Numbered from the stretch's first letter, positions 25,099 to 34,677 are shown. The stretch: DNA of 64,000 nucleotides from a phage (GCA_031520405.1 GCA_031520405.1_4842.1), one strand, 5' to 3'. Numbers and translations are program-made. The notes: generated by a model from the letters alone, not told the origin.

Positions 25099-25968
25099 AT
25101 GACAACTACATTTAATAAAAACGTGAGATTGAATTTGGCCTTTGGTAATGCGGCTGGAGATATTACAGCCCCTGACTTCGGTAAAATTCGCAATCAGGCC
25201 AAACTGGTTCTGGAAGAGACCCGCGAATTACTGGAAGCGGCTTATTTCGACCACGAGGTGAAAATTGAGTTCACTGCATCTCCGCGAGTCCTGAAAGAAC
25301 CTGCTGTTGTCGACATCAAAGACATTATGCGCCAGATTTTGGACGCTCAGGGCGACATCACAACAGTCAATGACGGCGTGGCACACATTGCTGGTTTCAA
25401 CGGCGATGAGTGCTTGCAGCGTGTTTATGCCTCCAACATGAGCAAATTTATTCGCTCAGAAGATGAAGTCGGTCCGGCACTGGAATATTATTATTCACGC
25501 GGTTTCCCAGTTGGCCAGTTACGCGTTGAAGGTGAATTCCCTCAGGCATGCATCAAAGTGAATGAGACTGTGATGTGGAATGGCAAAGAATATCCGAAAG
25601 GAAAATTCCTGAAAAACATGGCTGTGTTCAAAGAGCCTGATTTCTCTGATATGCTGACGAATACCCCTTCCCGTCAGATCAATGACATCGTTGTCAGCAT
25701 GGCAATTGAAGAAGGACAGGTATTTGTTGATGATCTGAACGGCGTGGCGTTGGTATCTCCAAAAACGTTGGAAGTAATTCTTTCTATGGCAGTTGAAAAA
25801 TCTTCTCGACCCGTAGATGTTAACGGCCAAATTGAAAGTTATGTGCCAGCGTATATCATTAACGATACCAATATGCCTAAGCTGTGTGGGGTGTGGGGTG
25901 CTAATGTTCGTGTATACGCGTGCGCACCTGTTCAAAACACTGTGACACACCTCTCTCGCTTCGATTAA
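25099..25968 (+). CDS. hypothetical protein (possible MazG-like NTP pyrophosphohydrolase N-terminal domain)
   Basis: ATG 25099 with GGAG RBS; LVLEETRELLEA helix reminiscent of MazG-type EExxE motif, weak. Confidence 0.5.
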   Translation: MTTTFNKNVRLNLAFGNAAGDITAPDFGKIRNQAKLVLEETRELLEAAYFDHEVKIEFTASPRVLKEPAVVDIKDIMRQILDAQGDITTVNDGVAHIAGFNGDECLQRVYASNMSKFIRSEDEVGPALEYYYSRGFPVGQLRVEGEFPQACIKVNETVMWNGKEYPKGKFLKNMAVFKEPDFSDMLTNTPSRQINDIVVSMAIEEGQVFVDDLNGVALVSPKTLEVILSMAVEKSSRPVDVNGQIESYVPAYIINDTNMPKLCGVWGANVRVYACAPVQNTVTHLSRFD

Positions 25969-25992
25969 TATAATCCGTTATTCACTAAACAA

Positions 25993-26019
25993 CAGAGGCT
26001 ATAATGGCCTCTGTTTTTT
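25993..26019 (+). terminator. rho-independent terminator
   Basis: CAGAGGC-TATAATG-GCCTCTG hairpin then T6. Confidence 0.6.
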
Positions 26020-26038
26020 GTATTCTAGAGAGGATACC

Positions 26039-27244
26039 ATGAAAGATAAACCGTGTGACATTCCTTATTGCGGTGTTCGGGAAGCTAAAATTAAATCTGC
26101 ACATCCCATGTTAAGCCCATTCCATAAACAACTCGCATACGAATGGATGAGCGAGCGTTATAAGATCCACGTGAGAAAGGACGTCCAGCGTCTTCCTGCT
26201 CCTTGGACGGATAATCCCATACTACGGCAGGTCAAGTTCTGTAACGTCCGGAGAGAGCACGATAGGCAGTCTCGAAATTTGATCAATAATATCATCCTCG
26301 ATCAGGATCTCACGCTATCTGACAAAATGTTTAACTGTGTATTGTTCCGCATGTACAACATGTGGGAACCTATACAGGCTTTGGGTGGTCCATGGACGAT
26401 CGAAGAATTCGGAAACATAAATCTTGAATGGTGTCGAGATGTTCTTCAGGAATTCGAATCTAAAGGTGGCAAAGTTTTCACCAATGCGTTTAATACAGGC
26501 GGTCTGAAACAATGCCTGGCTTTCCCTGAACTAGTTGTCAACCACAAGGAGCAACGCTTTGGCGGCATGAAGGTAAAAGTCCATCGGGTTGGCGGTGTTA
26601 TAGATGAAATGGATTACAAGGTTGCCAAGAAGCTGGCCGAAGATAATCCTGGTGAATACAAAATAGAAGGCTGGGAACCATACATGCCGATGCGAGTCAT
26701 CCGCTCTTTGAAGGCATTCGTCAACAAACACCCTCATTACTTTGATCGCCTCAGGGAATTTAGCCGTCCCGACTCTGTTTACCAGGCGATGTATGACGAC
26801 ATTGAGGGGCTTGGACCATTCTTGGCATACCAGATTTGGGTTGATTTTACATACATCGATGAATATCCATTCAGTGAAAACCACTTCACTATCGCTGGTC
26901 CAGGTTGCCGTGCTGGTATCGATCTGTTATTTTTGGACAAGGACGGCATGACGCATGAAGAATGCATATTCTGGGTTCGTGATCATCAAGATCAATTGTT
27001 CGCTCAGTACGGGTATAAACGTAATGAATTTTGGTCGGCAGAAGAACCGGAAGACCGTTGCATGAATGTTATGCAGTTGGAGAACATGTTCTGTGAACTT
27101 CAGAAATATACCCGCTGCGTTGAGGCGGTGATGCGCGGGGAGAAACCTCGAGGAAAGGTGGGGTATAATGGTGGTGAAGTTAATCAGCCATTACAGAAGA
27201 CTCCCGTTCGTTCTATTAATCTGTTAGAGAAGATGAAAAAATGA
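26039..27244 (+). CDS. hypothetical protein (401 aa)
   Basis: ATG with GAGAGGA RBS (track start 26018 is TTG); no domain confidently recognised. Confidence 0.5.
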   Translation: MKDKPCDIPYCGVREAKIKSAHPMLSPFHKQLAYEWMSERYKIHVRKDVQRLPAPWTDNPILRQVKFCNVRREHDRQSRNLINNIILDQDLTLSDKMFNCVLFRMYNMWEPIQALGGPWTIEEFGNINLEWCRDVLQEFESKGGKVFTNAFNTGGLKQCLAFPELVVNHKEQRFGGMKVKVHRVGGVIDEMDYKVAKKLAEDNPGEYKIEGWEPYMPMRVIRSLKAFVNKHPHYFDRLREFSRPDSVYQAMYDDIEGLGPFLAYQIWVDFTYIDEYPFSENHFTIAGPGCRAGIDLLFLDKDGMTHEECIFWVRDHQDQLFAQYGYKRNEFWSAEEPEDRCMNVMQLENMFCELQKYTRCVEAVMRGEKPRGKVGYNGGEVNQPLQKTPVRSINLLEKMKK

Positions 27245-34322: not shown

Positions 34323-34330
34323 ATTCAACT

Positions 34331-34354
34331 GGCGGGGAAACCCGCCTTCATTTT
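34331..34354 (+). terminator. rho-independent terminator
   Basis: GGCGGG-GAAA-CCCGCC hairpin followed by TTCATTTT. Confidence 0.55.
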
Positions 34355-34359
34355 GAGAT

Positions 34360-34677
34360 ATGCTTATGTCAAACAAACCAACTTATGTTGAAGTAATGCG
34401 TGTTCTGGCTCAGTACGCTTGTGACAACCTGAACATGGAAACTTGGCGCAACGGGGATCACAAGGACAAGTTTGATAACATTGATGATAATATCGATGCT
34501 TTAGCGCCGTTACGGGTTAAGAATGATCTCGGCGGTGACGATCTTGACATGATTGAGCTGGTCATGGAAATCGAAGAAGAGTACGATGTAGAAATTAGTG
34601 ACGAGTGGGTGGGTAAACATGGAGATGATCCTACCCTCGGAGAGTTAGCTGAACTCGTCGTTGCCCTGCGCAAGTAA
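34360..34677 (+). CDS. acyl carrier protein-like protein with Asp replacing the phosphopantetheinylated Ser
   Basis: DLGGDDLDMIELVMEIEEEYDVEISDE aligns to ACP [27 protein letters not shown]; Ser of DSL is Asp (codon GAT). Confidence 0.6.
   Translation: MLMSNKPTYVEVMRVLAQYACDNLNMETWRNGDHKDKFDNIDDNIDALAPLRVKNDLGGDDLDMIELVMEIEEEYDVEISDEWVGKHGDDPTLGELAELVVALRK

Follow-up and report, generated by a model that had tools for sequence, protein, structure and literature searches.

What does a phage carry behind regA when it keeps the T4 gene order 45-44-62-regA but does not have there the DNA polymerase gene 43 that completes the T4 cluster? This question is raised by a phage DNA stretch of 64,000 nucleotides (GCA_031520405.1_4842.1; this whole stretch is referred to as the window), in which regA is followed by a gene block on the + strand at 25099-34677, running from the ATG of a MazG-like gene to the stop codon of a gene for an acyl carrier protein (ACP)-like protein. 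An earlier sequence-only reading of the window took this block for an accessory gene island, a coherent set of unknowns as is typical of an accessory or counter-defence module. Our analysis points in another direction: with a probability that we estimate at about 0.8, the block is a gene arm conserved throughout the family and located after the clamp and clamp-loader genes, and its content is a mosaic of four or more independent units rather than one inserted module.

The part of the sequence-only reading that concerns the T4 comparison is confirmed. The genes of the gp45 sliding clamp (22426-23094), gp44 (23172-24161), gp62 (24166-24588) and RegA (24618-25082; PF01818, E=4e-35) all lie on the + strand in the order and orientation of the T4 cluster 45-44-62-regA-43, and each product is 100% identical in amino acids to its counterpart within orf163-orf160 of Escherichia phage CBA120. 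In contrast to T4, gene 43 is not adjacent: regA is followed by 12 + strand open reading frames (ORFs), or 13 if a conserved ORF of 56 aa at 31943-32113 is counted, and no DNA polymerase was detected across the 64-kb window by tblastn, whether the query was the CBA120 polymerase (its N-terminal 331 aa) or a full-length Vibrio ackermannvirus-like polymerase. The CBA120-type polymerase resides ~55 kb off in another gene arm (orf237 at 145008-148004 of CBA120, where the counterpart of the block is at ~78-88 kb). The tight packing and partial translational coupling that had been described are also evident, as the summed ORF lengths amount to 96% of the span of the block and there are five start/stop overlaps (-4, -1, -29, -8 and -8 nt). 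The ORFs are genuine genes and not chance ones: 282 phage records match the 13.5-kb query 22000-35500, and the coverage is at least 80% in 134 of them.

The comparison with relatives shows how old this arrangement is. Over these 13.5 kb the window is 98% identical to CBA120 (Kuttervirus, Ackermannviridae), with which it is collinear from ~113 kb down to ~50 kb, and the matching records are those of phages of Salmonella, Klebsiella, Escherichia, Dickeya, Serratia and Erwinia. The order of the MazG-like, aGPT-Pplase1, DUF8224, p123, gp49-like, VWA and ACP-like genes is common to ViI, Det7, ECML-4, Se-G, Yersinia phage CAU_YEP3, Dickeya phage phiD3 and Serratia phage Kevin. These seven larger genes are syntenic across the ackermannvirus genera examined, and in Kevin (Miltonvirus) the amino acid identity of their products is 36-63%. 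Among Salmonella phages, the DNA block (164 records), aGPT1 (164), DUF8224 (159) and VWA (157) are found in almost the same number of records. The G+C content of the block (0.437-0.466 vs 0.415-0.483 across the window) displays no compositional break, and mobility genes (integrase, transposase, homing endonuclease) are missing from the window's copy of the block. None of the seven large genes showed the presence/absence polymorphism between closely related phages that is expected of an island; such polymorphism was found only for Zn135, Zn87, p83, DUF3268 and two insertion slots. Because of the synteny, the record counts and the unremarkable G+C content, the lack of gene 43 after regA is to be seen as the ancestral layout. 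The block is the ancestral family-wide gene order of ViI/CBA120-like phages and not an insertion, and T4 is the wrong reference for the location of the polymerase in Ackermannviridae.

The accessory-island reading as a whole finds only partial support: comparison with relatives revealed variable small ORFs and the two slots, and the large genes are syntenic. The descriptions given for the individual proteins (MazG-like, 401-aa, 672-aa, three zinc-finger, 738-aa VWA/MIDAS and ACP-like) proved accurate. Of the finding that the earlier reading named as its refutation, one half applies: the genes are indeed conserved in the clade, but for most of them no replication function is known. Not all are unrecognised, as the 401-aa protein is an ortholog of the published ViI gp160. 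The locus is already public, and one of its genes is a published member of a characterised pathway. What looked like a hidden island is explained as the gene order that is usual in a phage family with many sequenced members; the interest that remains lies in the clade-1 enzyme, in the pan-phage DUF8224 and p123 cassette and in the ACP without its serine.

Neither do the genes form a coherent set. In other phage families each of three components (DUF8224 with p123, VWA738, aGPT-Pplase1) is encountered on its own, and terminator-like hairpins would split the block into several transcription units. A consensus scan places such hairpins on the + strand exactly in the gaps after the MazG-like, p123, VWA and p76 genes: at 25991-26015 (an 11-bp stem with a T run, separating the MazG-like gene from that of aGPT-Pplase1), at 30194-30214 after p123, as a GC hairpin at 34331-34346 after the VWA gene, and at 35038 after p76. 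A literature search on CBA120 transcriptomics returned nothing useful. As the parts are distributed independently elsewhere and the hairpins divide the block, we do not regard it as one module. The idea of counter-defence keeps its value for at least the first two genes, which probably serve thymidine hypermodification and nucleotide-pool control, and the accessory slots are real as well.

These first two genes constitute Unit A. The MazG-like protein (289 aa, 25099-25968, + strand) is a putative all-alpha nucleoside triphosphate pyrophosphohydrolase (NTP-PPase) matched by phrog_2144 (E=5e-135) and phrog_671 (E=3e-19); Pfam, NCBIfam and PDB sequence searches gave no match. It has a ~190-aa catalytic part, followed by a C-terminal extension of ~100 aa that is missing in phage Kevin, and the acidic motifs E39-E40-x-x-E43 and D82/D86 are invariant in 5 orthologues. 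The second gene (26039-27244, + strand) encodes the 401-aa protein aGPT-Pplase1, a clade-1 alpha-glutamyl/putrescinyl thymine pyrophosphorylase that matches positions 5-278 of the 281 of PF18723 ('HMUDK_hel') with E=6e-85 and 285.4 bits (cut-off 25). It is the ortholog of ViI gp160: the protein is 80% identical and syntenic to Vi01_130c, which bears the record note "orf00160", and shares with gp160 (Lee et al. 2018, 2021) the position after regA and the MazG-like gene as well as the PF18723 match. We see no substantive difference between the two and consider the window protein, which corresponds to CBA120 orf156, an allelic variant. Some deposited records already label homologues of the 401-aa protein as aGPT-Pplase clade 1. 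PDB searches with the single sequence or a profile gave nothing significant for it. The motif FSENxFT[IV][AS]GPGC, with E280, T284 and C290, is invariant in 7 orthologues, and the aGPT1 alleles are unusually divergent in Kuttervirus (72-100%) relative to the neighboring genes. As a separate observation, the C-terminal third of aGPT-Pplase1 weakly matches phrog_800 (E=6e-5), labelled "terminase small subunit", a name which RefSeq also gives to CBA120 orf074 (locus record 11771-12433) beside the thymidylate-synthase homologue; a wrong label may have spread here to a gene that in fact serves hypermodification.

The pathway to which gp160 belongs is well described. ViI-like phages replicate with 5-hydroxymethyldeoxyuridine (5-hmdU), and 5-HMUDK phosphorylates 5-hmdU in DNA; the clade-2 enzyme gp247 then adds serine, which the pyridoxal phosphate (PLP) enzyme gp226 decarboxylates to give 5-aminoethoxymethyldeoxyuridine (5-NeOmdU), a base present at ~40% of T positions that blocks many restriction enzymes (PMC5889632, PMC8989533, PMC11721090). 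The genes of 5-HMUDK, a dUMP hydroxymethylase and a clade-2 enzyme fall outside the window; for ViI the set is published (PMC5889632). CBA120, the closest relative of the window, contains 5-NeOmdU (PMC5889632), and a thymidylate-synthase homologue is located at 35.7-36.8 kb of this near-identical phage. The gp160 lysate was among five ViI lysates sufficient for 5-NeOmdU (Lee et al. 2018; PMC5889632), and the purified kinase, gp247 and gp226 make 5-NeOmdU without gp160 (PMC8989533). The conversion of the remaining 5-hmdU to thymidine is described as a step open since 1981 (PMC5889632), and our literature search found no published activity for any clade-1 aGPT-Pplase; gp160 is the one member of the ViI hypermodification set to which no reaction has been assigned. 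Borohydride is able to reduce the clade-2 methylene intermediate to thymidine (PMC8989533). In phage 15599 the pathway is linked to a dTTPase/dUTPase of the dUTPase/dCTP-pyrophosphatase fold, which spares 5-hmdUTP (PMC13458397). An aGPT1 homologue with 47% identity is also found in Vibrio phage D506, where it is accompanied by a DNA polymerase, a thymidylate-synthase homologue, a dNMP kinase and an NTP-PPase, with no other block genes nearby.

The clade-2 aGPT-Pplases (ViI gp247, M6 gp51, PhiW-14 gp109 and 15599 Pplase2) are amino-acid or polyamine:DNA transferases. The 401-aa protein is paralogous to them and shares the predicted helix-hairpin-helix (HhH) glycosylase-like fold, and its E280, T284 and C290 resemble the clade-2 catalytic Cys and metal ligands (PMC13458397). 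However, it belongs to another Pfam family and clade, its motif spacing is unlike theirs, and clade-1 gp160 is dispensable for serine transfer in vitro (PMC8989533). The MazG-like protein resembles gp18 of phage 15599 as an NTP-PPase-type enzyme of a thymidine-hypermodifying phage that adjoins modification genes (PMC13458397); this is a likeness of putative enzyme type, and in contrast to 15599 there is a second candidate elsewhere in CBA120. We propose that Unit A is part of a thymidine-hypermodification programme giving resistance to restriction. In this programme aGPT-Pplase1 would act on phosphorylated 5-hmdU (5-PmdU) in DNA via the invariant cysteine of the GPGC motif, and the MazG-like enzyme would bias the dTTP/dUTP/5-hmdUTP pools by analogy with the 15599 dTTPase/dUTPase. 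It could even be that aGPT-Pplase1 turns phosphorylated 5-hmdU in DNA into thymine. This guess is attractive because the trio of purified enzymes suffices for 5-NeOmdU, the residual 5-hmdU must become thymine, and the methylene intermediate is reducible; nevertheless we hold it only tentatively and think it rather unlikely.

Unit B consists of the DUF8224 protein (672 aa, 27745-29763, + strand; PF26675) and p123 (123 aa, 29801-30172, + strand; phrog_2018), its predicted helical/coiled-coil partner. The family assignment is based on homologues from 97% down to 49% identity that carry a precomputed PF26675 match. A p123 homologue is found immediately 3' of DUF8224 in all 14 full-length loci examined (seven ackermannviruses, phiCbK, Bacillus phage BCU4, Stenotrophomonas phage Piffle, Klebsiella phage Iguana and three metagenomic contigs), and phiD3 has the same pair by annotation only. 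In phiCbK, BCU4, Piffle, Iguana and the three contigs the pair is present without the other block genes. At E<=1e-3 we obtained 4,496 DUF8224 cluster representatives (clusters at 50% identity), and among the best 150 of these nearly all are 650-700 aa long and 41-52% identical to the query, spanning phage families. With ~4,500 clusters in myo-, sipho- and podoviruses of Gram-negative and Gram-positive bacteria and of cyanobacteria, this module is among the most widespread uncharacterised ones, and a single family-level function for DUF8224 and p123 would annotate thousands of genes. A natural deletion is informative as well: Dickeya phage XF4 (locus 12094-12832) lacks DUF8224 residues 90-672 and all of p123, the first 89 DUF8224 codons being joined to DUF3268 remnants and a truncated gp49-like gene, whereas the conspecific phiD3 is intact. 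XF4 is viable without both proteins, so the pair is dispensable for growth.

The DUF8224 protein is laid out as an N-terminal alpha/beta part, a helical region, a small alpha/beta part, a TerD-like beta-sandwich (~420-560) and a C-terminal beta domain. The fold comparison identified the beta-sandwich as having the TerD fold, and we call it TerD-like rather than a member of the TerD family because Pfam TerD had no match at E<=0.1 in 30 DUF8224 members. Compared with TerD domains (PDB 2kxt, 2qz7) the region is only 11-13% identical, it forms one part of a 672-aa protein in which the remaining regions lack a PDB counterpart, and no Ter genes are nearby. A Foldseek search of the whole DUF8224 model against the PDB gave no match at E<=0.001, PDB sequence searches with DUF8224 or p123, as single sequences or profiles, gave nothing significant, and Pfam searches on 30 DUF8224 and 9 p123 members yielded noise only. 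The literature contained nothing useful on PF26675 and the phrog identifiers, and on TerD/vWA in phages only the classical Ter operons of jumbo phages were found. Two other interpretations were discarded: the label "DNA-directed RNA polymerase", which DUF8224 bears in some records, has no profile or fold support, and a TerF-like TerD-vWA link between DUF8224 and VWA738 conflicts with each being found without the other elsewhere.

We view Unit B as what appears to be a self-contained two-gene cassette carried by very many unrelated phages. Since it is dispensable for growth, its role is probably a conditional one in host interaction or counter-defence, and the TerD-like domain is probably Ca2+- or ligand-binding. 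A more specific proposal is that DUF8224 and its adjacent partner of 123-140 aa form an undescribed two-protein module for host takeover or defence evasion acting via this Ca2+- or ligand-binding domain; we consider it possible, at somewhat less than even odds. Two side observations concern the same gene pair. In the ViI record (10301-12320) the DUF8224 gene is annotated as two coding sequences, Vi01_128c and Vi01_129c, both noted as orf00158, which reflects a frameshift in this type phage or else an error in its sequence. In BCU4 (8533-11724) and Piffle (1568-3780) a MoxR-like AAA ATPase gene and a VWA-like/metallopeptidase gene are situated within a few kb of DUF8224 and p123.

Unit C would comprise the small Zn-ribbon ORFs, a gp49/66-like gene, p56 and VWA738, the largest protein of the block (738 aa, 32106-34322, + strand), which matches the VWA profile above the cut-off and has the VWA fold. 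It starts with a VWA domain carrying an intact metal ion-dependent adhesion site (MIDAS) and followed by a beta-sandwich (~1-300), after which come ~440 aa of helical and beta domains without a PDB counterpart. The MIDAS signature DxSxS...T...D is intact, with D24, S26, S28, T97 and D127 invariant in 34 homologues. PDB sequence searches with VWA738, single or profile, gave nothing significant, and NCBIfam searches on the block proteins returned only generic VWA and ACP matches below the cut-offs. VWA738 homologues of 48% identity are present in RB43-like Straboviridae, where no other block genes occur within 9 kb. VWA738 differs from known VWA and beta-sandwich proteins (PDB 4fx5; archaeal ArnB, 8s05; ITIH1, 6fpy) in its additional 440-aa C-terminal region and in being cytoplasmic, phage-encoded and without a kinase, phosphatase or MoxR partner nearby. 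Its MIDAS face most likely binds a protein partner. The conserved small ORF p56 (31943-32113, + strand; phrog_8656, E=7e-40; CBA120 orf145) is translationally coupled to the VWA gene.

The last gene of the block, which we treat as Unit D, encodes the ACP-like protein (34366-34677, + strand; PF00550, E=4e-7, 30.7 bits at a cut-off of 20.8). Like E. coli AcpP, this protein keeps the helix-II recognition region DLGxDxLDxxELVMxxEE; unlike AcpP, it has a 45-aa N-terminal extension and lacks Ser36, the phosphopantetheine site, which reads LGGDDLD in the window and LGADSLD in AcpP. Asp or Glu takes this position (DDLD or DELD for DSLD) in all 15 ackermannvirus homologues in the database and in Serratia phage Kevin, and the family, with 20 clusters found, appears restricted to Ackermannviridae. 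Judged by its sequence, the protein cannot carry the prosthetic group at the canonical site, and because the serine is replaced we advise against classing it with the functional carrier proteins. Most likely it mimics apo- or holo-ACP towards a host partner. Both the serine-less ACP and the MIDAS protein could plausibly serve to manipulate the host, in phages that are applied in the biocontrol of Salmonella and E. coli O157.

One could still argue that the block is a coherent accessory or counter-defence island, inserted where an ancestral T4-like genome had its polymerase gene. The T4 order is truly broken, the small ORFs differ among close relatives, homing endonucleases and a NARP1-like gene pair have entered this locus in relatives, XF4 tolerates the loss of DUF8224 and p123, and the divergent aGPT1, gp49-like and ACP alleles of Det7 between flanks of 97-100% would fit arms-race or recombination hot spots. 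However, this explanation is largely refuted by the synteny of seven large genes across genera, down to 36-63% identity, and the ordinary G+C content, the lack of mobility genes in the window, the independent distribution of the components and the dividing hairpins speak against it too. None of the PADLOC families matched the 10 block proteins searched, which is weak evidence, since that library models host defence and not phage counter-defence. An inserted island is thus unlikely. A role of VWA738, possibly together with DUF8224 and p123, as a morphogenesis co-chaperone seems very unlikely. It would resemble the MoxR-VWA pairs for which a part in the assembly of tails or virions has been proposed: VWA/MIDAS proteins commonly pair with AAA+ MoxR chaperones, and such pairs are used by jumbo phages and an archaeal virus (PMC7824862). 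The AAA ATPase and VWA-like genes a few kb from DUF8224 in BCU4 and Piffle could be counted in its favor, though they may be there by chance. Yet no MoxR-type ATPase is annotated in the block or nearby in CBA120, and the neighbors of the block are replication and early-middle genes; the head and tail genes occupy the other strand.

The least probable of the alternatives, in our view, is that the whole block is one extension of replication and DNA modification, in which DUF8224, p123, VWA738 and the ACP-like protein act with aGPT-Pplase1 on new DNA, for example as a scaffold or by delivering a serine/ethanolamine donor. Several positions agree with it, as the block comes right after the genes of the clamp, the clamp loader and RegA, and DUF8224 adjoins DNA polymerase and primase genes in Iguana and is near dCTP deaminase and ThyX genes in Piffle. 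A DUF8224 homologue is also encoded by Bacillus phage SP-15, which carries a hypermodified base. Against it, 5-NeOmdU was reconstituted without any of the four proteins (PMC8989533), the DUF8224 and p123 loci examined in phiCbK, Bastille-like and N4-like phages carry no aGPT-Pplase1, VWA738 stands alone in RB43-like phages, XF4 manages without DUF8224 and p123, and the canonical site of the ACP-like protein is predicted to be unable to bear acyl or aminoacyl groups. The reading of the block as a conserved mosaic arm has its own weak points, which should be weighed here. Its synteny sample consists of about ten genomes and record counts. Promoters and terminators were called by consensus matching only, and 23 terminator-like sites were counted vs 14 expected by chance in 15 kb. 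The putative functions of DUF8224 and p123, VWA738 and the ACP-like protein are suggested by fold, distribution and dispensability only. The MazG-like assignment comes from PHROG annotation and a motif, and the second NTP-PPase of CBA120, which adjoins a dUMP-hydroxymethylase homologue, may be the real dTTPase. C290 and E280 may be the catalytic counterparts of the clade-2 Cys and Glu, and their spacing is different.

Within the conserved arm, what can properly be called accessory is confined to the small zinc-ribbon ORFs and two insertion slots. Zn135 (27241-27648, + strand; phrog_16119), a small CxxC...CxxC zinc-ribbon protein with sub-threshold Zn-ribbon Pfam matches only, has a start codon that overlaps the stop codon of aGPT-Pplase1 (ATGA), and it is facultative, being found in 81 records spread over ackermannvirus genera. 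The slot after aGPT1 that it occupies is filled by homing endonucleases in four relatives (Det7, XF4, phiD3 and YEP3), while ViI and ECML-4 have nothing there. We considered from this shared slot that Zn135 might be a degenerate homing endonuclease and rejected the idea, as tblastn revealed no similarity to the Det7, XF4 and YEP3 endonucleases. Zn87 (30232-30468, + strand; 78 aa from ATG) is a miniprotein with two DnaJ-type CXXCXGXG motifs (PF00684, E=6e-4, below the cut-off); ackermannviruses account for 36 of the records that have it, a further 43 records belong mostly to jumbo coliphages (~50% identity), and it is missing from ViI, Det7, Kevin and YEP3. The DUF3268 zinc-finger protein (136 aa, 30468-30878, + strand; PF11672, E=9e-38) is variable, with none in Kevin and partial copies in YEP3 and XF4. 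The small ORF p83 (30850-31101, + strand; phrog_9847) overlaps both neighbors and is Kuttervirus-restricted in the loci examined. The next gene (31094-31819, + strand) encodes a 241-aa protein of the N4 gp49 / Sf6 gp66 family (PF13876, E=1e-12, residues 9-85) and is syntenic in all ackermannviruses examined.

The second slot, at 31820-31942, is empty in the window and the site of insertions in relatives. In Se-G (locus 10422-12934) it holds a 2.5-kb insert with a PRPS-like (PF13793/PF00156) and a NAMPT/NAPRTase-family (PF04095) gene, a pair that has the architecture of NARP1 (NAD+ reconstitution pathway). Se-F probably has the same insert, since the match spans an equal length. Dickeya phages have at this slot a 110-aa ORF without a Pfam match that was deposited as a fragment of NadV (nicotinamide phosphoribosyltransferase). 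Allele exchange is visible in Det7 (9980-19173), in which aGPT1 is 72%, the gp49-like protein 46% and the ACP-like protein 60% identical to the window, while the flanks and intervening genes are at 97-100%. A MobE-like homing endonuclease directly follows the divergent aGPT1 allele of Det7, and a simple explanation would be that this allele was acquired by co-conversion with the adjacent endonuclease.

The downstream flank of the block provides some minor observations. A direct repeat of 71 nt (93% identity; 34684-34754 and 35040-35110) brackets an ORF of 76 aa at 34799-35029, and each repeat is composed of a terminator-like hairpin followed by a promoter-like site, TTTACT-17-TATTAT. This 356-bp repeat cassette is absent in CBA120, and the same 76-aa ORF is found in Yersinia phage CAU_YEP3 at 100% identity; the cassette looks like a case of gain or loss via recombination between regulatory repeats. 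Further on, at 35456-35962, a 168-aa protein matches the C-terminal part of the PHROG family "RNA polymerase ADP-ribosylase" (E=1e-15). CBA120, Det7 and Se-G encode this protein and ViI, ECML-4, YEP3, Kevin and XF4 do not, and we regard it as a variable candidate for host takeover.

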